NCBI GenBank assembly: GCA_037146775.1
Contig: JBAWWL010000003.1
Span: forward strand, 2,334-66,333
DNA from: Candidatus Omnitrophota bacterium
GTDB lineage: Bacteria; Omnitrophota; Gorgyraeia; Duberdicusellales; 4484-171
Direction: 5' to 3'
Length of the DNA: 64,000 nucleotides
The stretch's first letter is position 1. Each line of letters starts with the position of its first letter. A model generated the notes under the pieces. That model saw nothing but the letters and a program-made list of their open reading frames with translations, did no database searches and had not been told where the DNA came from. Both the position numbers and the translations under genes were made by a program. This document shows, piece by piece, positions 1,642-63,319 of the stretch.

Positions 1642-3225
1642 TTGGGCCAAAGAGCAAACAATCTTATGCAAACTCAATCATATCCTTTCCGGATTAAAGA
1701 ATTGGGCCGCGTTAAAGAAGTAAGAAAATTTATCGTTAAAATCGAAGGATTCCCTTCGTGTATGAACGGCCAGCTGGTTTCTTTTCCCGGAGGGACCAAG
1801 GGGTTGGTGATGGGTTTTAACGAGCGCGAGGCGCTGGCTATCATTTTAGGTTACGAAGGCAGCGTGCGCATCGGCGATATTGTCGAAGCACAAAGCCAGG
1901 CATTTACAGTGCCGGTTAACGATAGTTTACCGGGTAGAATTATCACCGCGCTGGGAAAGCCTTGCGACGAGAAAGGCCCGATCGCGGTAAGTGGATTTTT
2001 ACGTTTGGCAGCGAACGCCGACAGTCTCACCGCGCACACGTCTTATTGCCCTGTGTTCACCGAAGCGCCCTCGGCCATGGAAAGATCGGATGTCCACGAG
2101 CAACTGGAGACAGGCGTAAAGATGGTCGATATGTTTGTTCCGCTCGCCAAGGGCCAGCGCATACTTATTTTTGGTGACAGGATGTCGGGCAAGACCTCTC
2201 TGGCTACGGACGCTATTATTAACCAAAAGGATAAAGATGTGGTGTGTGTGTATTGTTCGATTGGAAAAAGCTATTTTTCTCTTTTACGGGTCGTCCAGTT
2301 ACTGAAGAAGCATCGCGCTTTGGATTACACGGTTGTCGTTGCCGCAGGAGCTGCCTCGTCGTGCGGTGAACAGTATCTGGCGCCATATACAGCCACCGCG
2401 GTAGCCGAATACTTTATGAACAAAGGCAAAGATGTGTTGCTGGTAATGGATGATTTAACCAAACATGCCTGGGCTTACCGCCAGCTTTCTTTACTTTTAG
2501 AAAGGCCGCCGGGCAGAGAAGCTTGCCCCGGAGATATTTATTATATTCACGCACAACTGCTCGAGCGTTCAGGTAAATTAATAGATGAAAAAGGAGGGGG
2601 CAGTATTACGTCGCTTGTACTCGCAGACACATTGCAGGGTGATATAAGTAGCTATATTCCTTCAAACTTTGTCTCCATGCTCGACGGTCAGATATATTTA
2701 AGTACCACCTTGTTCGGCGACGGCTTTAAACCGGCGATTGATTTTGGTTTATCCATTTCGATTATGGGCGGAAAGATCCAGCATCCGGCAATAAAAGAAT
2801 TTACACAGCGCATACGTATAGAATATGCTCAGTACCGGGAATTGCTTAGGCTGATGAAGTTAAAGTCGACGCTTTCCTCCGAGGCGGAGGCAAAGATAAA
2901 ACGCGGAGAAACCATCACCGAGCTTCTTAAACAGCAGCGTTCTAGCCCGGTGTCGCAAGCGGAGCAGATAATTTTGCTGTATGCTTTGGAAAAAGGTATG
3001 CTGGATAAGCTTTCGAGCCAACAGCTCAAAACATTCAAAAATGATTTTTTTAGCTTTGTACAAAAAGAAGAACCGGAGATAGTGCGCTTGTTGGAAGAAC
3101 GGCAGCCGCTGGATAACAAAAGTGCCGCCTTGATCGAAAAAGTTCTGCAGGATTTCTTTGTGCAAATAGCGGTCAGCTTTAAGATCCAACCGCAGCCTGC
3201 GCAAGCCATCCCTGTCGGAGTATAA
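1642..3225 (+). CDS. F1-type ATPase alpha subunit, paralog 2
   Basis: 527 aa. A second alpha-type protein: P-loop GDRMSGKTS, MDDLTKHAWAYRQLSLLLERPPGREACPGDIYYIHAQLLERS. I estimate 45-50% identity to paralog 1 by eye. It starts 60 bp downstream of paralog 1. Confidence 0.8.
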   Translation: MGQRANNLMQTQSYPFRIKELGRVKEVRKFIVKIEGFPSCMNGQLVSFPGGTKGLVMGFNEREALAIILGYEGSVRIGDIVEAQSQAFTVPVNDSLPGRIITALGKPCDEKGPIAVSGFLRLAANADSLTAHTSYCPVFTEAPSAMERSDVHEQLETGVKMVDMFVPLAKGQRILIFGDRMSGKTSLATDAIINQKDKDVVCVYCSIGKSYFSLLRVVQLLKKHRALDYTVVVAAGAASSCGEQYLAPYTATAVAEYFMNKGKDVLLVMDDLTKHAWAYRQLSLLLERPPGREACPGDIYYIHAQLLERSGKLIDEKGGGSITSLVLADTLQGDISSYIPSNFVSMLDGQIYLSTTLFGDGFKPAIDFGLSISIMGGKIQHPAIKEFTQRIRIEYAQYRELLRLMKLKSTLSSEAEAKIKRGETITELLKQQRSSPVSQAEQIILLYALEKGMLDKLSSQQLKTFKNDFFSFVQKEEPEIVRLLEERQPLDNKSAALIEKVLQDFFVQIAVSFKIQPQPAQAIPVGV

Positions 3226-3258
3226 GATGTTCGTAATCGCGTAATGTAAGGAGAAATA

Positions 3259-4116
3259 GTGGCAACGCTATCGTCGCTTAAAAAGGAATATGATTTTAAT
3301 GTGGAGCTGGCATCTGTGATAGACGTTATGAAGGGTATTGCTGCCTCACAATTTCAGTCGTTACAGCGGCGCAGGGAGCGATTTAAGAAATTTCTTGATT
3401 CCTTTTCCAGCTTTTTTCAGCTCATCGATTTTAGCGCAGTCGCACACCCCTTCGGCCGCTTAGCGACAGAACGTGTGGGTATTATCATGGTGACTTCCGA
3501 CGAGGGTTTTATGGGCGGATTGAATACCCACGTTATCAATGCAGCTCTCGCCCATCGGAGGACCGAAGCCGAATTGATTATTGTCGGCGACCGCGGTGCG
3601 GCATATTTAAAAGGTTTAGGTGAACAGTTTACATATTTCCCCGGCGTTACCGACGAGAATAAATACGAGTTAGCCATAAAATTACGAGATTATATTATGC
3701 AACAAAGCAAACGCGCTAAATTTGGCATGGTTCTTTTGTCGTATCCTTTGCCGGTGTCTTTTACCTTTCAGAAGGTGGAAGTGATTAAGCTCCTGCCTTG
3801 TACGGAATTATTCGAAAAAAAAGAAGATTTGACCTCAGGCGGTGAAAAAGTTATTGTCGAGTCGCATCTCGAAGATATTATTGAGCATTTGGTGGCTGAA
3901 TGGATATCTGAAAAATTGTACGAAGTCTTTGAGGATTCAAAACTTTCTGAATTCGCCGCCCGGGCAATCAATCTTGAACAGAGCTATCAAAACGTTTCGC
4001 AGTCACGGAAAATAGCCCGGTACCGTTTTTTTCAGGCAAAACATACCGCCATAGACAGAAGTATGCGTGAAACGTTTGCCTCGCAACTTTTGCGTAAAAA
4101 AGATGCGGTTACATAA
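3259..4116 (+). CDS. atpG: F1-type ATPase gamma subunit-like protein
   Basis: 285 aa. GTG start, with an AAGGAG RBS 6 nt upstream. The N-terminal pattern ([33 protein letters not shown]) fits the gamma N-helix; both the length and the position between alpha and beta fit gamma. Confidence 0.65.
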
Positions 4117-4157
4117 TATGCACAGTACACAGGGCTGCGACAACAAGAGATAATCAT

Positions 4158-5549
4158 ATGGCAGATAATACTATTAAAAAAACAGGCAGGGTGGTTGCGG
4201 TTCAGGGGCCGGTAGTCGACGTTAAATTCGAAAAAGCGGAAGAAATTCCCGGCATATATCAAGTTATTATTACCAAAACATTTGACGGTAAGGAGCTTCT
4301 TTTGGAAGTAACCGAGCATCTCGAGGGAAACATCGCCCGCTGCGTCGCCTTGGCCTCAACGCTTAATTTGCAGCGAAACCAGCCGGCGGTTGCGCAGGGT
4401 AGTCCTATTAGTATTCCGGTGGGCAAAAGTTTATTTTCAAGAATTATCAACGTTGTCGGCGAGCCTATTGATTCGCAGGGCCCTATTGTTACCAGCGAAA
4501 GAATGCCCATACGAAAAGATATGACTTCATTTTATCTTAACCCGGACAGGCACAGCCTGGAAAAGCTCGAAATTTTAGAAACCGGCATAAAAATTATGGA
4601 TTTATTGTTTCCAATGGTCAAGGGAAGCAAGTCGGGAATACTTGGCGGCGCGGCTTTAGGCAAAAGTATTCTCACTTTGGAATTGATACATAATGTTACG
4701 CAAAAGAGCAAGGGCGTCTGTGTATTTACCGGAGCCGGCGAGCGTATCCGAGAAGGCAACGAATTATATAATGAGTTCAAGAAACAAGGTTTACTGGACA
4801 GAGTTATTATGGCATTTGGCCAGATGAATGAACCTCCGGGCGCGCGGTATGAAATTGTTTTAACCGGAGTGACCGTGGCTGAATATCTGCAAAGCCAGAA
4901 TCAGGACGTTCTCTTTTTTGTGGATAATGTTTACCGATTTGTACAGGCAGGAGCTGAGATTTCCACGCTCTTAGGCAGGGTACCCTCCGAGATGGGGTAT
5001 CAGCCAACTCTGGCCTCGGAAGTCGGTGAATTCCAGGAACGGATTCGTTCAAGAGAATCAGGTTCGATCACTGCCGTAGAGGCGATCTATGTTCCGGCTG
5101 ATGACTTAACCGATCCGGCAGTCGTCACTATATTTAGTTACTTGGATGCGGTGTTAGTGCTTTCGCGAGAACGAATACAGCTGGGGTTATATCCGGCCAT
5201 TGACCCGCTCTTGTCAAGCTGTTCCAATCTCGATCCTGAGATTGTAGGGGAAAGGCATTTCATTATAGCTCAGGAAGTAGTCAAAATTTTAACCAAATAT
5301 GAGGAGTTGAAGAAAATAGTGGCGGTTATCGGCGTGGATGAACTTTCCAAAGTCGATCGCATTCTTTATGAGCGGGCCAGAAAGCTGCAGAATTTTCTTA
5401 CCCAGCCGTTTTTTACGGCGGAAGTCTATACCGGTAAGAAAGGAGAATATGTAACTATAAAAGAAACCCTAGACGGCTGCGAGAAAATTATTTCCGGAAG
5501 AGCCGACACTATTAAGGAAGAAGATTTGTATTTGATAGGAAAACTTTAA
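4158..5549 (+). CDS. atpD: F1-type ATPase beta subunit
   Basis: 463 aa. [16 protein letters not shown]...[23 protein letters not shown]...[43 protein letters not shown]...[10 protein letters not shown]...DELSKVD parallels the E. coli beta catalytic core. The P-loop is the variant GGAALGKS. Confidence 0.88.
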
Positions 5550-25394: not shown

Positions 25395-26402
25395 ATGCCG
25401 CAATTACGCAAAGATCCTATATTAGGAAGATGGGTTATTATTTCGACCGAACGGGCGAAGCGTCCTAAGGATTTTCCTCGTGCAGAATCCGCCCCTGCGG
25501 AAAAAGAATGCCCTTTTTGCAAAGGAAAAGAAAACTTAACTCCCGCAGAAGTTTTTTCCATAAGAGACCCGCAAGGGAATTGGCGGGTACGCGTAATACC
25601 CAGTAAAAAACCCTTTGTAAGATCGGATGTCGAGTTTTGGAAAAAAGGTAAAGGTCCCTATGATTCAATTAACGGCGTGGGCAGCCACGAGGTGGTCATC
25701 GAAACCCCCGACCATATTAATAACATGGCGGATTTGGACGAAAACCTTATAAAAGATGTATTTAACGCCTATTGCAATCGTTTTAGAGAATTGGGTAAAG
25801 ACGGGCGCATTAAATACGTGCTTGCGTTTAAAAATTACGGTTGGGATGCCGGCGGCGGCAGAGTGCGGCATTCACGCTCGCAGCTTATCGCGACACCGGT
25901 CAATCTTAAAAGGGTAAAAGAAGAGCTTGAAGGCTCCAAGGCTTACTATCATTACCACGAGCGGTGCGTTTTTTGCGATATTATCAGGCAAGAACTGCAG
26001 ACAGGGGAACGGGTAGTATTGGATCAGGACGGTTTTATCGTTCTCGTTCCGTTTGCTCCGCGTTTTCCTTTTGAGGTGTGGATACTTCCCAAAGACCATT
26101 CTCCGGATTTTTATAATGTTTGCGAAAAAAATGTCGAAGGGTTAGCCAGGGTGGTACAGAAAACATTGCGTAAGATAAAGGTGTTACTTAACGACCCGGC
26201 GTATAATTACGTCATTCACACCGCTCCGTTTCGCAGGCCATACCCGGGTTATTGGTCAACCATAGAAGAGGACTATCATTGGCATATTGAAATTACGCCT
26301 CGCCTGACCAGAGTCGCGGGGTTTGAATGGGGAAGCGGTTTCTATATCTGCCCATCATTACCGGAAGAATCGGCAAAGTTTTTACGTGAAACCAACGTAT
26401 AA
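25395..26402 (+). CDS. GalT-like (HIT superfamily) nucleotidyltransferase paralog 1, with Arg at the nucleophilic His position
   Basis: 335 aa. N-terminal DPILGRWVII, zinc CxxC (CPFC), C-terminal HWHIEITPRLTRVAGFEWGSGFY. The active-site region reads RHSRSQ instead of HxHxQ. Confidence 0.7.
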   Translation: MPQLRKDPILGRWVIISTERAKRPKDFPRAESAPAEKECPFCKGKENLTPAEVFSIRDPQGNWRVRVIPSKKPFVRSDVEFWKKGKGPYDSINGVGSHEVVIETPDHINNMADLDENLIKDVFNAYCNRFRELGKDGRIKYVLAFKNYGWDAGGGRVRHSRSQLIATPVNLKRVKEELEGSKAYYHYHERCVFCDIIRQELQTGERVVLDQDGFIVLVPFAPRFPFEVWILPKDHSPDFYNVCEKNVEGLARVVQKTLRKIKVLLNDPAYNYVIHTAPFRRPYPGYWSTIEEDYHWHIEITPRLTRVAGFEWGSGFYICPSLPEESAKFLRETNV

Positions 26403-26560: not shown

Positions 26561-27562
26561 ATGCCTGACATCAGAAAAGATCCTATTGTTGCGCGCTGGG
26601 TAGTTGTTAACGTGGAAGAGCCATATCTTCCCAAAGACTATGCGGTTGCGCCGCCGGTATGGAAGGGAGAAAAAGATTGCGCTTTTTGCTATGGCAATGA
26701 ACATCTTACTCCTCCGGAAATCGAGGCGATATCGGAAACCTGGCGCGCTCCCAATACGCCGGGATGGAAAGTAAGAGTGGTGCCGAATAAATTTCCGGCA
26801 CTGCGCATTGAGGGAGACTTAGATAAGCATGCCCTAGGCATATATGATATGTCTAATGGTGTAGGGGCGCACGAAGTAATTATAGACAGTCCGCATCACT
26901 ATAAAGGTATTCCGGAATTCACCGATACCGAAACGGAATACATGCTTAAAGCATATCGCAGCCGTACGCTTGATTTACGAAAAGACAGGCGATTTAAATA
27001 TCTGCTCATTTTTAAAAATGTTGGGGTTGAGGCAGGAGCTTCCCTTGAACACGGACATTCACAGTTGATCGCTCTTCCCATGGTGCCCAAAAATGTTTCT
27101 GACGAAGTCAGGGGCGCACAGCATTTTTATGAATACAGAGAACGTTGTATATTTTGCGATATGATCGCGTATGAACAGGAGGACGGTAAGGAAAGAATTG
27201 TTACCGAGAACGAACATTTTGTGGCGTTTTGTCCTCTTTCCGGCAGGTTCTCGTTTGAAACGTGGATTGTTCCCAAGGAACACTCGATGGATTTTGGGTC
27301 GATCGACGACAACCATATTAGAACGCTTGCTAAAATTCTTAGAGACACCTTGGGAAGGCTTAAAAAGGTTTTGGGAGACCACCCCTATAACTATATTATC
27401 CATACCTCTCCCATTAACACCGACGCACACTTTTCATACCATTGGCATATTGAAATTATGCCTAAATTAAGCCGTGTGGCCGGTTTTGAATGGGGAAGCG
27501 GTTTTTATGTCGTGTCTACTCCGCCCGAAGTGGCTGCAAAATCTTTGAAAGAAGCAGTGTAG
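26561..27562 (+). CDS. GalT-like (HIT superfamily) hexose-1-phosphate nucleotidyltransferase/phosphorylase paralog 2
   Basis: 333 aa. DPIVARWVVV, CAFC zinc site, intact EHGHSQ (HxHxQ) active site, YHWHIEIMPKLSRVAGFEWGSGFY. Confidence 0.75.
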   Translation: MPDIRKDPIVARWVVVNVEEPYLPKDYAVAPPVWKGEKDCAFCYGNEHLTPPEIEAISETWRAPNTPGWKVRVVPNKFPALRIEGDLDKHALGIYDMSNGVGAHEVIIDSPHHYKGIPEFTDTETEYMLKAYRSRTLDLRKDRRFKYLLIFKNVGVEAGASLEHGHSQLIALPMVPKNVSDEVRGAQHFYEYRERCIFCDMIAYEQEDGKERIVTENEHFVAFCPLSGRFSFETWIVPKEHSMDFGSIDDNHIRTLAKILRDTLGRLKKVLGDHPYNYIIHTSPINTDAHFSYHWHIEIMPKLSRVAGFEWGSGFYVVSTPPEVAAKSLKEAV

Positions 27563-54706: not shown

Positions 54707-56041
54707 ATGACACAAGAGAGTAATTATAAAATTTGCGTTATCGGTGCCGGTCACGTCGGTTTGGTAACCGCGTCTTGCTTTGCTGAGCTAGGGTATCATG
54801 TGGTTTGCGTTGATAATGATATAAAAAAGATAAAAGGCTTAAAAAAGTTGCACCTGCCCTTTTACGAGCCGGACTTGGAACCATTGGTAAAAAAGAATCT
54901 CCAAAGCCGCCGGCTTATTTTTTCTTCCTCGATAGAGGGCGCCATCAGGGATTCCCAGGTTATTTTTCTCGTGGTGGGCACTCCGCCTCTTTCTGATGGT
55001 TCGGCCGATCTTACTTCTATTGAGAATATTGCCCGCAGTATTGCCAAGAATCTTAATGCGTATAAGCTGGTGGTAGAAAAATCTACTGTTCCGGTTCAGA
55101 CTGGCCAGAAGGTAAAAGAAACCATCTATCGTTATCGAAAGAGCGCGGTAGCGTTTGATGTTGCCTCTAACCCTGAATTTTTGAGGGAAGGCAAAGCCGT
55201 ATATGACTTTTTCCATCCCGACAGGATTGTTATCGGCGTCGAAACAGAAAAGGCAGGAAGAATCCTTAAAAGTTTGTATTCTGCCATTAAGGCTCCGATG
55301 GTGACCACCGACATCAATACTTCGGAGCTTATTAAGCACGCTTCGAACTCTTTTCTGTCGACAAAAATTTCTTTTATTAATGCAGTGGCCAGAGTGTGCG
55401 ATCTTTCCGGGGCGAATATCAATAAGGTCAAGGAAGCGATGGGTTTTGATAAAAGGATCGGTAAAGATTTTTTAAATGCCGGCATCGGCTACGGCGGATT
55501 CTGCTTTCCGAAAGACCTTGAGGCTTTTATCTATATTTCTAAAAAATTAGGCTATGATTTTGGTTTGCTGAAAGAAGTAAAACGCATAAATGACGATCAA
55601 CGCGCTTATTTTGTAGGTAAAATAAAAGAGCATCTTTGGGTTTTGAAAGGTAAAAAAGTCGCAATTTTAGGCTTATCCTTTAAGCCTGATACCGACGATA
55701 TGCGGTTTGCGCCTTCCCTGGATATCGTCCAGCTTTTGTTGAAAGAAGGAGCGAGCCTTCGTTTGTACGATCCTCAGTCTATTGGTGAAGCGAGAAAAAT
55801 GTTTTCAGGATTAACCGCAAGCGGGAAAAATGCGCGGATTACTTTTGCGCAAAATCCTTACGACGCAGCGAAAGAATGTGATTGTGTCTGTATTCTTACC
55901 GAATGGAAAGAATTCTCTTCTTTGGATTTCAGAAAAATCAAGAAACTGATGCGTTATCCTTTGCTTGCTGACGGAAGAAATATGCTTGACGCCGACGATT
56001 TGGTCAAGAAAGGGTTTGAATATATAGGCATAGGCACATAG
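54707..56041 (+). CDS. ugd: UDP-glucose 6-dehydrogenase family protein
   Basis: 444 aa; N-terminal GAGHVGL Rossmann; catalytic GGFCFPKD. Confidence 0.85.
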   Translation: MTQESNYKICVIGAGHVGLVTASCFAELGYHVVCVDNDIKKIKGLKKLHLPFYEPDLEPLVKKNLQSRRLIFSSSIEGAIRDSQVIFLVVGTPPLSDGSADLTSIENIARSIAKNLNAYKLVVEKSTVPVQTGQKVKETIYRYRKSAVAFDVASNPEFLREGKAVYDFFHPDRIVIGVETEKAGRILKSLYSAIKAPMVTTDINTSELIKHASNSFLSTKISFINAVARVCDLSGANINKVKEAMGFDKRIGKDFLNAGIGYGGFCFPKDLEAFIYISKKLGYDFGLLKEVKRINDDQRAYFVGKIKEHLWVLKGKKVAILGLSFKPDTDDMRFAPSLDIVQLLLKEGASLRLYDPQSIGEARKMFSGLTASGKNARITFAQNPYDAAKECDCVCILTEWKEFSSLDFRKIKKLMRYPLLADGRNMLDADDLVKKGFEYIGIGT

Positions 56042-56102: not shown

Positions 56103-58871
56103 ATGAGCCATTTCAATCTGCTAAAAAATAGAATTCAAACCAAAAAAGCCAAGCTGTGTGTTATTGGCCTGGGGTACGTGGGTCTTCCTTTGGCTTTAGC
56201 GTTCAGCAAGAAAGGCTATCTTGTCTACGGTTTAGACAATAACGTTTCCCGCATCGAACGTCTGAAGAAAGGCGAACGGTATATTTTGGATTTTGAACCC
56301 CGAGAAGCTCTCGCATTAATTAAAGCCGGCAGATTTATACCTACCACCGAAAGTAGAGTTATCCAGAATTGTGACGCGGTGATTGTCTGCGTTCCTACGC
56401 CGTTACGTAAGGTAAAGATGCCTGATGTTTCTTATATTATTGATGCCAGTAAAACCATTAAAGAGCATGTGCGAGTGCCGCAGTTAATTATTTTAGAAAG
56501 CACTTCTTATCCTACTACGACCAGAGACGTAGTTTTGCCGATTCTAGAAAAAAATGGCCTTAAGGAAGGAAAGGATTTTTTTCTTTGTTTTTCTCCCGAG
56601 CGGGTGAACCCCGGCGATAAAAAATTTCCCCTGATAAAAGTTCCTAAGGTCGTTGGCGGGATTTCACCTCAATCTACGGAACTTGCGAAAACGCTCTATT
56701 CAAAGATCATAAAGAAAATTTTTTGTGTCTCAAGCGCCGAGGCAGCCGAAACAGCAAAACTTTTAGAAAATACATTTCGTTTGGTTAACATTGCCTTGAT
56801 AAACGAGTTTGCTATCGTGTGTCAGAAGTTAGGTATAAATGTGTGGGAGGTTATTGAAGCGGCAAAAACCAAACCATTTGGTTTTATGCCTTTTTATCCC
56901 GGCCCCGGTCTTGGTGGCCATTGCTTAGACGGTAAAGAAGTTATATTTAGCGATAATGGCAAAGGCATTGAAACAAAGACAATAGATTCATTAACAGAAA
57001 GTATCCGTAATGATCCCCTGTCTTTGAAGAAAAAAATAAATGGAGTTGAATATCTTAAACCGGCTCCGCGTTATCGAATGCTTACTTTTGATATAACTGC
57101 CAAAAAAGCTGTTTTTAAACCTATCGAGATGTTTTCCAAGCGCAAAACAGAGGATGATTTATTTAAAATAACCACCAGCGATAACCGGAATATTACTGTA
57201 ACGCATGGCCATCCGATGTTTATTTTTACGGAGGACGATTTGGAAATAAAGTTTGCCAGAGATTTAAAAATAGGAGACAGAATCCCGTTTGCTTTAAAAA
57301 CCGATTATGAAATACAAACACAAAATAACGAACCCTTAAAAATTGATTTAATTGAATCTATAAAAAACAATCCGCAGCTTATCAGCAAAATAAGAGTTAG
57401 GCAACGTATTGGCTTATGGAATGCCTTTAAAGAGAACATTTATAAAATAAATTTCGATAATGCTAATTATCATGATTATATACGTTATAATTCTTTACCG
57501 CTGACATATTTCTTACGTGCCGAGGCGGATAAACTTTTAAATATAGACCACAAGGATTTATTGCTTTGTTCCGGACGAGGGCCTTCTTATAGCGAAATCC
57601 CAGCAGTTATTGACTTAGATCCCGAATTTTGCAGATTAATAGGCTACTATTTAAGCGAAGGCTGTATCACTGTTGATAAATCTATGCGGGTTAGGTTTTC
57701 TTTTAACAGCTGCGAGAAAGAATATATAGAAGATGTATGTTCTATATTAAAAAATGTCGGTATCAAATATTCTTTATACAATTCCAAACAATGGAAAGCA
57801 TCATGCATAAAAGTATCTTCTAACTTATTTGGTTTTTTATTGAAGAGAATATTAAATTGCGGCAGCAATTGTTATGAGATGAATATACCAGCGCCATTTT
57901 TTAAGCTGAATAAGCAATATAAATGGGAGTTATTGAAAGGTTTATTTAGGGGCGATGGGGGGGTAGATATTGAAACTGGTAAGGCCCATTATATCAAAAA
58001 TGGTAAGCAGTATTACCATAATCGTAATTCAATAGGGATTAACTATTTTTCTTCAAGCAAGGTATTATTCCAGCAAGTAGTGTTTTTGCTGCAAGAGTTT
58101 GGGATAGTCCCTACTTTTAAGAAAAGAGAAGGATTGCTATATATATTTGGGTATAAACAAGCGGAACGCTTCAGGGGTGTTTTCCTGGGTTCAAAAAACA
58201 ACAAAATAGAAACATATTTTGTTAATAACCGCAAAATTATTTCCAATAGAGGATTTAAAGTCCATGAAGGTTTTGGCACGTCAATTATAAAATCTATCAA
58301 ACGCACAAAAGGAGATTATGTTTATTCTGCAGAAGTTAAAGACACCCATACTATAATTACTTCGTATGGTACTATAGTGCATAATTGTATACCGGTAGAT
58401 CCTCTCTATTTATCCTGGAAAGCAAAAAAGTTAGGCTTTAAAACAAAAATGATTGATTTGGCGTCGTATGTAAATCGCTTTATGCCCGGCTATGTTATCG
58501 AAAGGGTTGAAGCGTTATTGAAAGAAAAAGGCATTGCCATAAGCCAGGCCCGCATTTTAATTTTAGGCGTTACCTACAAGAAAGACACCAAAGACATCCG
58601 CGAATCGCCCGCGTTAGAAATCATTGAGGGCCTAAAAACAAAGAAAACAAAAGTTGATTTTTATGACCCTCTTATCCCGTACCTTAAAATAGACGGCATT
58701 AATTTAAATGGCATTTCGCTTACTAAAGACAATCTAAAAAAATATGATTGTTTAATCGTTGTCGCCGACCATTCAAGCGTTGATTATGAATTTATCAGGA
58801 AAAATTCAAAACTAGTTTTCGATACACGCAATGTTTACAAAACCAACAAAGAAAGGGTGGTGAGATTATGA
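56103..58871 (+). CDS. Intein-containing nucleotide-sugar dehydrogenase (WecC/TviB/UDP-ManNAc-DH-like extein of about 434 aa plus a 488-aa intein)
   Basis: N-extein (56103-56921) carries GLGYVGLPLA Rossmann and ...GPGLGGH. C-extein starts CIPVDPLYLSWKAK..., completing the catalytic GGHC-IPxD motif. Confidence 0.85.
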   Translation: MSHFNLLKNRIQTKKAKLCVIGLGYVGLPLALAFSKKGYLVYGLDNNVSRIERLKKGERYILDFEPREALALIKAGRFIPTTESRVIQNCDAVIVCVPTPLRKVKMPDVSYIIDASKTIKEHVRVPQLIILESTSYPTTTRDVVLPILEKNGLKEGKDFFLCFSPERVNPGDKKFPLIKVPKVVGGISPQSTELAKTLYSKIIKKIFCVSSAEAAETAKLLENTFRLVNIALINEFAIVCQKLGINVWEVIEAAKTKPFGFMPFYPGPGLGGHCLDGKEVIFSDNGKGIETKTIDSLTESIRNDPLSLKKKINGVEYLKPAPRYRMLTFDITAKKAVFKPIEMFSKRKTEDDLFKITTSDNRNITVTHGHPMFIFTEDDLEIKFARDLKIGDRIPFALKTDYEIQTQNNEPLKIDLIESIKNNPQLISKIRVRQRIGLWNAFKENIYKINFDNANYHDYIRYNSLPLTYFLRAEADKLLNIDHKDLLLCSGRGPSYSEIPAVIDLDPEFCRLIGYYLSEGCITVDKSMRVRFSFNSCEKEYIEDVCSILKNVGIKYSLYNSKQWKASCIKVSSNLFGFLLKRILNCGSNCYEMNIPAPFFKLNKQYKWELLKGLFRGDGGVDIETGKAHYIKNGKQYYHNRNSIGINYFSSSKVLFQQVVFLLQEFGIVPTFKKREGLLYIFGYKQAERFRGVFLGSKNNKIETYFVNNRKIISNRGFKVHEGFGTSIIKSIKRTKGDYVYSAEVKDTHTIITSYGTIVHNCIPVDPLYLSWKAKKLGFKTKMIDLASYVNRFMPGYVIERVEALLKEKGIAISQARILILGVTYKKDTKDIRESPALEIIEGLKTKKTKVDFYDPLIPYLKIDGINLNGISLTKDNLKKYDCLIVVADHSSVDYEFIRKNSKLVFDTRNVYKTNKERVVRL
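56922..58385 (+). mobile_element. Full-length intein with LAGLIDADG homing-endonuclease domain
   Basis: Block A CLDGKEVIF (Cys1); block B TVTHGH; LAGLIDADG motifs LIGYYLSEGCI and LLKGLFRGDGGV; blocks F/G DYVYSAEVKDTHTIITSYGTIVHN ending His-Asn, with the +1 residue Cys. Confidence 0.85.
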
Positions 58872-62923: not shown

Positions 62924-63319
62924 ATGGGTATAAAAACGATAAAAGATTTGAAAGTATACGAGATTGCTTATAAATTAGCTATGGAGATATTTGAAATAAC
63001 AAAGAAGTTTCCCAAAGAAGAGACGTATTCGTTGACTGATCAGATAAGACGTTCTTCTCGGTCAGTAGCCATAAATATCCGTGAAGGGTATGCTAAACGA
63101 AAATATGAGCAAGTATTTATCAGGCATCTAAATGATTCATTAGGTTCAGGCGAAGAAACAAGGGGATGGTTAAGCTTTGCGAAAGATTGCAAATATATTA
63201 CAGAAGTTTTATATAATAAATTAGACGTTAGGTATGATGAGCTCTGTGCCATGCTTTATTCTCTCATGAATAGCTGGGAGAGCCCTTCTACCGTTGAGGT
63301 TCTGACTTCTGACCTCTGA
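62924..63319 (+). CDS. Four-helix-bundle protein (23S rRNA intervening-sequence protein family)
   Basis: 131 aa; KDLKVYEIAYKLAMEIFEITKKFPKEETYSLTDQIRRSSRSVAINIREGY matches the family's signature layout. Confidence 0.75.
   Translation: MGIKTIKDLKVYEIAYKLAMEIFEITKKFPKEETYSLTDQIRRSSRSVAINIREGYAKRKYEQVFIRHLNDSLGSGEETRGWLSFAKDCKYITEVLYNKLDVRYDELCAMLYSLMNSWESPSTVEVLTSDL

Follow-up and report, generated by a model that had tools for sequence, protein, structure and literature searches.

Inteins of the UDP-glucose dehydrogenase type have been known since the 1990s. We take protein MJ1054 of M. jannaschii to be the founding member and 'Mja UDP GD' to be the InBase name of the allele. By way of InBase, the enzyme is given as a long-listed intein host in PMC2874743. 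Defining intein alleles as distinct insertion positions, Soucy et al. (2014, PMC4071816) recorded the 'udp' allele in seven Halobacteria, six other Euryarchaeota including M. jannaschii (NP_248048.1) and two Bacteria, Dictyoglomus thermophilum H-6-12 and a Fervidibacteria bacterium, and ten 'UDP-GlcDH' inteins were counted in Euryarchaeota by Novikova et al. (PMC4760082). These three sources agree with the preliminary description of the DNA studied here, which mentioned an archaeal UDP-glucose dehydrogenase intein. Here we analyze a 64,000-nucleotide stretch from a metagenome-assembled genome (MAG) of a Candidatus Omnitrophota bacterium, referred to below as the window, in which a nucleotide-sugar dehydrogenase gene is split by an insert. 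This insert is a complete class-1 LAGLIDADG-type intein located directly before the catalytic Cys of the enzyme, and its splice-critical residues are all intact. As judged from its sequence, it belongs to the known 'udp' allele, of which it is a new and unpublished member carried by an Omnitrophota MAG, and it is not novel in kind.

The intein was placed in the 'udp' allele because a D. thermophilum protein (P0394, assumed to be accession YP_002250310.1 of the list in PMC4071816) has the same insertion point, GGH/C, where the slash marks the splice junction, and a homologous intein that aligns over residues 1-488 with 38% identity (E 1e-98). The two junctions read GPGLGGH/CLLGKE...YVHN/CIPIDPFYLS in P0394 and GPGLGGH/CLDGKE...IVHN/CIPVDPLYLS in the window. 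Concerning M. jannaschii, the shared site is implied by the allele definition of PMC4071816 and not by a sequence alignment. The window and the allele have in common a host of the UDP-glucose/GDP-mannose dehydrogenase family, a full-size LAGLIDADG intein and the C1...HN/C ends, whereas the Omnitrophota host and the GGHC-IPxDP (WecC/WbpA-like) extein set the window apart, and most allele members of other lineages show only 35-47% identity with its intein.

The preliminary description had pointed to a 922-aa open reading frame (ORF) with some 490 aa more than its family and had quoted the motifs CLDGKEV, TVTHGH, two LAGLIDADG sequences and a terminal IVHN followed by Cys+1. All of these were found at the intein positions given for them, and the insert was delimited as 488 aa (Table 1). 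The precursor stop codon shares bases with the start of the next gene (ATGA), and joining the two exteins in silico yields a product of 434 aa with a calculated mass of 48.9 kDa.

Table 1. Features of the intein-bearing dehydrogenase gene and of the adjacent paralogue, in positions of the window. Conservation was scored in 119 full-length intein homologues.
Feature	Position	Strand	Remarks
Precursor ORF	56103..58871	+	922 aa, 105.4 kDa; nucleotide-sugar dehydrogenase split by intein
N-extein	56103..56921	+	273 aa; NAD-binding domain and most of central domain; C-terminal end FYPGPGLGGH
Intein	56922..58385	+	Residues 274-761, 488 aa, 56.5 kDa; GC 33.3% vs 41.9% in N-extein
Block A CLDGKEV	56922..56942	+	Intein residues 1-7; Cys1 and Glu6 each 100% conserved
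Block B TVTHGHP	57195..57215	+	Intein residues 92-98; TxxH = Thr94 (97%), His97 (100%)
LAGLIDADG motif 1 LIGYYLSEGCI	57636..57668	+	Residues 239-249; catalytic Glu246 codon 57657-57659, 99%
LAGLIDADG motif 2 LLKGLFRGDGGV	57930..57965	+	Residues 337-348; catalytic Asp345 codon 57954-57956, 97%
Block F VYSAEVKDTHTIIT	58320..58361	+	V467, S469, E471 invariant; Y468 nearly so
Block G GTIVHN	58368..58385	+	Residues 483-488; His487 99%, Asn488 100% conserved
Cys+1 codon TGT	58386..58388	+	GGH-C-IPVD; splice nucleophile = dehydrogenase catalytic Cys (GGxCxxxD motif)
C-extein	58386..58871	+	161 aa and stop; remaining central domain and UDP-binding domain; starts CIPVDPLYLS
Adjacent intein-less paralogue	54707..56041	+	Ugd-type, GYGGFCFPKD; equivalent-site DNA 31/60 matches (11/24 central)

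The host portion of the ORF matched the N-terminal, central and C-terminal UDPG_MGDP_dh domains of Pfam (PF03721, PF00984 and PF03720) with E values of 1e-40, 2e-28 and 1e-22, respectively; these and the intein matches given below greatly exceed what chance would produce. In the precursor the central domain appeared in two pieces, and it became whole (1-93 of 94) once the insert was removed. The spliced extein also matched the generic model TIGR03026 over its full length (431.6 bits, 2-413 of 413). An alignment of the in-silico spliced extein, whose junction peptide is ...GPGLGGHCIPVDPLY..., with the Pyrococcus horikoshii UDP-ManNAcA dehydrogenase (PDB 4r16) and Staphylococcus aureus Cap5O (3ojl), two solved orthologues of the host enzyme that have no intein, was free of gaps over the junction (pgpgvGGHClavdp). 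This located the insertion between the His and the catalytic Cys, as predicted, with the catalytic motif GGH-C-IPVD present in the flanking exteins. The Cys that follows the intein corresponds to residue 269 of the Cap5O chain, which we take as Cys258 by assuming an offset of 11 residues for an N-terminal tag. Cys258 is the covalent catalytic nucleophile of Cap5O, it lies in the invariant G-G-x-C-x-x-x-D motif and it is the equivalent of Cys260 in the Streptococcus pyogenes UDPGDH (PMC4794789). The preliminary description held that the +1 nucleophile of inteins is often catalytic; this has to be corrected, as insertion at a catalytic residue is rare among inteins and is a peculiarity of this allele.

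Among the specific NCBIfam equivalogs searched (WecC NF008286, archaeal UDP-ManNAc dehydrogenase NF040825, TviB NF011729 and Ugd/TuaD/AglM), all remained below cut-off with the spliced extein (scores of 245 vs 459, 288 vs 750 and 251 vs 592), and TIGR03026 was the only model to pass. The name given by JGI to close intein-less orthologues is UDP-N-acetyl-D-glucosamine dehydrogenase. On these matches, the host enzyme is classified no further than as a UDP-sugar 6-dehydrogenase of the WecC/WbpA/TviB-like branch. NCBI already has an entry for the identical protein (P0001), under the title 'MAG: nucleotide sugar dehydrogenase [Candidatus Omnitrophota bacterium]'; this annotation gives only the name 'nucleotide sugar dehydrogenase', and the mature enzyme would be of 434 aa and not of 922 aa.

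Based on Pfam and NCBIfam searches, the insert contains both the splicing and the endonuclease modules of an intein. The scores were 53-56 bits for LAGLIDADG_3 (PF14528; cut-off 22.5) and 41.3 bits for Intein_splicing (PF14890; cut-off 35.8), while intein_Nterm (TIGR01445) and intein_Cterm (TIGR01443) gave 39.1 vs 24.5 and 21.5 vs 15.6, respectively. Long partial NCBIfam matches were to the intein parts of the models for the archaeal Pol II large subunit and for the intein-containing Tes synthase. Block B could be aligned with its counterpart in the Mja KlbA intein (2jmz). The splice-critical residues C1, T94/H97, H487-N488 and C+1, which the preliminary description regarded as intact, are all present and 97-100% conserved in the homologues, and Cys+1 itself is 100% conserved; the C-terminal end of the intein is HN in 118 of the 119 and GN in the remaining one, always followed by Cys+1. 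Both acidic residues expected in the LAGLIDADG motifs are also present (E246 and D345).

An AlphaFold2 model of the intein built with 63 aligned homologues reached a mean pLDDT of 94.1 and a pTM of 0.92. When compared with the PDB using Foldseek, the best matches in order were PI-PkoII (E 3.8e-26), the TliVMA intein, PI-PfuI, the PhoVMA intein and PI-SceI, followed by stand-alone LAGLIDADG enzymes for the middle domain and mini-inteins for the Hint domain. The Hint-domain matches, with a probability of 1.00, were to the mini-inteins TvoVMA, RadA and TFIIB, with a root-mean-square deviation of about 2 A over some 125 columns; full-size inteins also matched with a probability of 1.00, and the endonuclease fold matched I-Tsp061I, I-DmoI, I-OnuI-family enzymes and intein endonucleases. 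Like the window intein, PI-PkoII (2cw7), PI-PfuI (1dq3), TliVMA and PhoVMA (7qss, 7qst) and PI-SceI (1vde) have a Hint domain split by a two-motif LAGLIDADG endonuclease. In the motifs YYLSE246G and FRGD345G an acidic residue is followed by Gly in both cases, and they align with LxGYYxSEG and GxFxGDG of PI-PkoII. Sequence identity with these solved inteins is 11-15% and the TM-scores are 0.4-0.65, reflecting different domain orientations. They reside in other host proteins (DNA polymerase, RNR and V-ATPase) and their activities have been proven biochemically.

An N-terminal Cys or Ser (here Cys1), TxxH, a terminal His-Asn followed by Cys, Ser or Thr (here HN/C), the Hint fold and an in-frame insert whose removal restores the host protein are together the marks of a class-1 intein. 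The presence of blocks A, B, F and G, scores above the Pfam and NCBIfam cut-offs, the predicted fold and the conservation in 119 homologues confirm that this is an intein and not another type of domain insertion. Hint domains of the bacterial intein-like (BIL) kind have no endonuclease and are typically found in variable secreted proteins, not at conserved sites of housekeeping enzymes. A BIL or other Hint domain was ruled out here, as the insert has an endonuclease and a conserved active-site position, and its match to PF01079 was marginal (E 0.02-0.06).

In the precursor, the intein parts the GG turn of the GGxCxxxD motif from the catalytic Cys and the general-base Asp. Because of this separation, the precursor cannot be enzymatically active and the activity depends on splicing. 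Both splicing and DNA cleavage by this intein are predicted from its residues and fold. Following the standard intein pathway, an N-to-S acyl shift at Cys1 would produce a thioester, which would be attacked by Cys+1 in a trans-thioesterification to give a branched intermediate. Cyclisation of Asn488, aided by His487, would then free the 56.5-kDa intein, and an S-to-N shift would complete the 48.9-kDa enzyme, in which GGH and C are joined by a native peptide bond; these calculated masses are close to the earlier estimate of about 48 kDa for the product and 56 kDa for the intein. The endonuclease, through Glu246 and Asp345, would cut intein-free alleles near ...GGTGGCCAT/TGTATACCG... and the intein would spread by homologous repair. 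The DNA site formed by fusing the exteins across the intein junction is TTTTATCCCGGCCCCGGTCTTGGTGGCCAT/TGTATACCGGTAGATCCTCTCTATTTATCC. The adjacent Ugd-type paralogue, with 29 mismatches in the 60 positions that surround the corresponding site, has not been invaded; this fits a sequence-specific endonuclease.

We looked for traces of this mobility mainly by comparing the window with one close intein-bearing relative (L001), together with a sketch tree of the exteins. Three Omnitrophota loci are syntenic with the window (ROK kinase, transaldolase, LptD, (Ugd), dehydrogenase, rml/epimerase); the intein is present in L001 and absent from L082 and L083, and their exteins are each about 70% identical to those of the window. 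In general, intein-less Omnitrophota orthologues (P0121-P0240) are 65-72% identical to the spliced extein, have the same gene neighbourhood and lack the 1464-bp insertion, and their active-site motif FYPGPGLGGHCIPxDPLYLS is identical to that of the window. At the empty sites the amino acids are the same as in the window for L082 and differ at two positions for L083, and 43-45 of 60 DNA positions match. In a neighbor-joining (NJ) tree of 239 exteins the presence of the intein required at least 11 gains or losses; the clade of the window extein comprised 3 intein-plus and 23 intein-minus members, and its sister is intein-less. This NJ tree, scored by the Fitch method, is a sketch with biased sampling of plus and minus members, as it was built from the searches with the full ORF and with the spliced extein together. 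The spliced-extein search listed intein-less proteins only and missed P0001 and P0002, whose exteins are 100% and 71% identical, which biases the plus and minus counts; interrupted homologues seem to be lost by such a search.

The inteins of the window and L001 are more alike than the genes that carry them, with 80% amino acid and 79% nucleotide identity against 72% and 68% amino acid and 70% and 66% nucleotide identity for the two exteins. Most neighbouring genes show 57-72% identity and transaldolase shows 80%. The proportion of synonymous differences (pS) was 0.60 for the intein and about 0.8, that is saturated, for the exteins, ROK and Ugd. This raw Nei-Gojobori gap (0.60 vs >0.8) was not trusted as sole evidence given the AT-biased codon usage, and because the intein is AT-rich it was replaced by a same-codon test corrected for codon usage. 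At positions with identical amino acids the inteins used the same codon in 63% of cases when 47% was expected (z=6.9), whereas the exteins, Ugd, LptD and ROK were at expectation (z 0.5-1.9) and transaldolase gave z=3.6. Since similarity at synonymous sites is kept in the intein and the host genes are saturated, the last common ancestor of the two inteins appears to be more recent than that of the genes carrying them, which points to lateral transfer of the intein by homing among Omnitrophota after the divergence of the host genes. The ratio of nonsynonymous to synonymous divergence (dN/dS) between the window and L001 was 0.10 for the intein and 0.09 for its endonuclease part, so that the endonuclease appears to have been under purifying selection since the transfer. 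Low GC of the intein (33% vs 42%) was rejected as a mark of recent arrival, as the intein is AT-richer than the extein in 74 of 79 genomes, by a mean of 5.7 points.

On the whole evidence, this gene very probably encodes a 105-kDa dehydrogenase precursor with a class-1 'udp' intein and homing endonuclease that has been laterally exchanged among Omnitrophota. Several observations weigh against this interpretation. An Asp in block F (F:4) is frequent in inteins and is not universal. Block F of the window intein reads VYSAEV (58320-58337, intein residues 467-472) and the family VYSxEV, in which neither Ser469 nor Glu471 varies among 63-119 homologues, so that an invariant Ser occupies the position of the common Asp and the class-1 pattern is broken there. 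As this Ser is conserved family-wide, we read it as a variant and not as decay; it is probably tolerated, and Ser and Glu may form a family-specific catalytic arrangement. In addition, a co-conversion tract was not detected in the 40 extein codons on each side of the junction (z=0.7), the identities of inteins and exteins correlate (r=0.76, 76 genomes) and the GC content of the intein follows that of the host from 24% to 72% (79 genomes). The correlated divergences and the tracking of host GC indicate that most of the family history was vertical. Some pairs depart from the correlation, upward or downward: among 2850 pairs, the positive residual of window/L002 ranks third in size, and L005 and L010, with exteins that are equally similar (70%), have inteins of only 45-47% identity. 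L020 and L034, both from DPANN archaea, have exteins of 37% and inteins of 61% identity and represent the clearest example here of an intein passing between hosts that had diverged. The history of the family is then one of long vertical descent mixed with occasional replacement or invasion.

The signs of vertical descent, namely the correlated divergences, the amelioration of the intein to host GC in 79 genomes and the undetected co-conversion tract, would also be accounted for by an intein that still splices and whose endonuclease no longer homes, the LAGLIDADG domain being kept for folding, splicing or another role and the intein now passing from parent to offspring. We find this possible but doubtful in view of the catalytic Glu and Asp retained in 99% and 97% of homologues, the dN/dS of 0.09 in the endonuclease region, synonymous sites that date the intein later than its host gene (z=6.9 vs <2), the patchy presence in syntenic loci and on the extein tree, and pairs such as L020/L034 in which intein identity (61%) far exceeds extein identity (37%). 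From the conserved catalytic residues, the low dN/dS, the synonymous-site evidence of transfer and the patchy distribution, the endonuclease is probably active now or was so recently.

Another explanation gives the intein a role for its host. A disulfide between Cys1 and Cys+1 (or involving the catalytic Cys), or some other cue, would keep the precursor unspliced, and the synthesis of envelope sugar acids would be turned on post-translationally. In its favour, both splice nucleophiles are Cys and Cys+1 is a redox-sensitive catalytic thiol, oxidation leads the equivalent Cys of Cap5O to form a regulatory disulfide (PMC4794789), PMC4760082 cites redox-trapped inteins, and many lineages have kept the intein together with an intact endonuclease. 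This explanation is improbable, however, as the sequence gives no direct sign of it, the intein-less orthologues of the same locus work without an intein, and mini-inteins and losses occur. A slightly fainter chance still is given to the broader proposal that the intein is not merely parasitic and that redox- or stress-conditional splicing switches the supply of UDP-sugar acids for envelope polysaccharide; splicing could be conditional because Cys+1 is an oxidation-sensitive catalytic thiol and Cys1 adjoins it in the precursor. If this were true, a conditional switch would be present in Omnitrophota and many other uncultivated bacteria, and it could explain how a full-size intein with a conserved endonuclease has lasted in hundreds of lineages at a rare catalytic-residue site.

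It is very unlikely that the gene is effectively inactivated by its insert, as it would be by the remnant of a decayed intein unable to splice or by some other inserted domain, since set against the missing block F Asp are an unbroken reading frame, every splice residue with 97-100% conservation, a dN/dS of 0.10 and a predicted Hint and LAGLIDADG fold with a pLDDT of 94. A chimera joining an intein to a dehydrogenase by metagenome mis-assembly, conceivable as the window stems from a MAG, is effectively refuted by over 200 independent genomes with the same in-frame architecture, among them the complete one of the cultured Desulfonema magnum 4be13, and its chance is negligible.

The preliminary description considered such inteins uncommon in bacteria. 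That held for the literature of 2014-2015, with two bacterial hosts, but no longer does. In a protein database search with the full ORF, all of the best 120 matches have the intein at the same site and measure 885-967 aa, except for one 610-aa fragment; some are named by JGI 'UDP-N-acetyl-D-mannosaminuronate dehydrogenase/intein/homing endonuclease'. In a library of representatives at 50% identity, the intein has matches in 66 clusters (E<=1e-30), and the majority of these are dehydrogenases of about 860-940 aa with the intein before the catalytic Cys, from both the GGHC-IPxDP (WecC/WbpA-like) and the GGSC-FPKD (Ugd-like) branches. When a single genome of each GTDB species was scanned with two peptide patterns only, the allele was confirmed in 237 species-level genomes, which is a lower bound; the 80 of them that were listed are mostly bacterial. 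Those 80 span Omnitrophota, MAGs labelled Planctomycetia, Elusimicrobia, Chloroflexota, Acidobacteriota, Desulfobacterales, Paceibacterota and Woesearchaeota, and GGx/C...(H/G)N/C, with H or G before the final Asn, was found in 79 of the 79 genome loci parsed. The cultured D. magnum 4be13 (L036), with its complete genome, carries the same architecture, and the allele is also found in DPANN archaea (L020, L031, L034, L047 and L060, from Woesearchaeota and unclassified archaeon MAGs). Three IMG/VR contigs (L084, at 2164-4926, L085 and L086, of 62.5, 442 and 340 kb) have intein-bearing dehydrogenases with the GGH/C site and 35-39% identity; these contigs may represent large viruses that serve as vectors, or cellular DNA that was misclassified. 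Mini-inteins without an endonuclease occur at the same site in P0402 and P0403 (623 aa; the intein of P0403 has 193 aa) and P0406 (591 aa, with an intein of about 165 aa). In these relatives of the Dictyoglomus protein, the mini-inteins of about 165-193 aa correspond to the degenerate forms to be expected from a homing cycle.

Outside the dehydrogenases, the nearest relatives of the window intein are those of PurL / FGAM synthase II (P0279, P0284 and P0287, identified as such by the AIRS domains found in a Pfam scan), with 33-37% identity over 488 aa and C1...HN/C ends. They differ from it in host protein and in site (...HN/C[VI]GVPTV...). The kinship of PurL and dehydrogenase inteins hints at a possible ectopic jump between two metabolic enzymes. 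Relatives outside the dehydrogenases include proteins of about 1080-1260 aa with an ...HN/C[VIMT]G... junction. Four further non-dehydrogenase relatives, P0294, P0300, P0301 and P0311, were assigned by length and junction motif only.

The window is a stretch of ordinary bacterial chromosome, with genes for ATP synthase, type II secretion/pilus, Obg, glycolysis, PolA, Rho, RF1, the trp operon, LptD and an rml cluster. No further intein was found among the window ORFs scanned with Pfam, including PolA, the ATP synthase subunits and Rho. All sizeable ORFs with Pfam matches are on the + strand over the 64 kb, those of at least 120 aa on the minus strand overlap larger + strand ORFs, and the cumulative GC skew climbs steadily from 50 to 64 kb. 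At its left end are two tandem F1-ATPase alpha-like genes (71-1582 and 1642-3225; 503 and 527 aa, with 50% identity to each other), and next to them come genes for a gamma subunit (3259-4116) and for a beta-like subunit (4158-5549) that at its C-terminus matches the model of the V/A-type ATP synthase C-terminal domain, an unusual arrangement of ATP synthase genes with a duplicated alpha. Two neighbouring and divergent galactose-1-phosphate uridylyltransferase-like genes (25395-26402 and 26561-27562), with GalT N and C domains and DUF4921/DUF4931 signals in Pfam, lie upstream of GAPDH-PGK-TPI. A small gene for a '23S rRNA-intervening-sequence protein', a bAvd-like four-helix bundle, is kept inside the sugar-nucleotide cluster of all three syntenic Omnitrophota loci, at 62924-63319 in the window, 11523-11942 in L082 and 8337-8696 in L083.

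The importance of this intein is modest, as the general understanding of inteins is unchanged by it. It belongs to one of the few intein alleles placed exactly at a catalytic nucleophile. This allele, reported in 2014-2015 from about 15 genomes that were almost all archaeal, is in fact widespread in DPANN archaea and in uncultivated bacteria, the bacterial carriers including Omnitrophota, Acidobacteriota, Chloroflexota, Elusimicrobia, Desulfobacterales and members of the Candidate Phyla Radiation, and the cultured carrier D. magnum 4be13 offers an experimental route to it.

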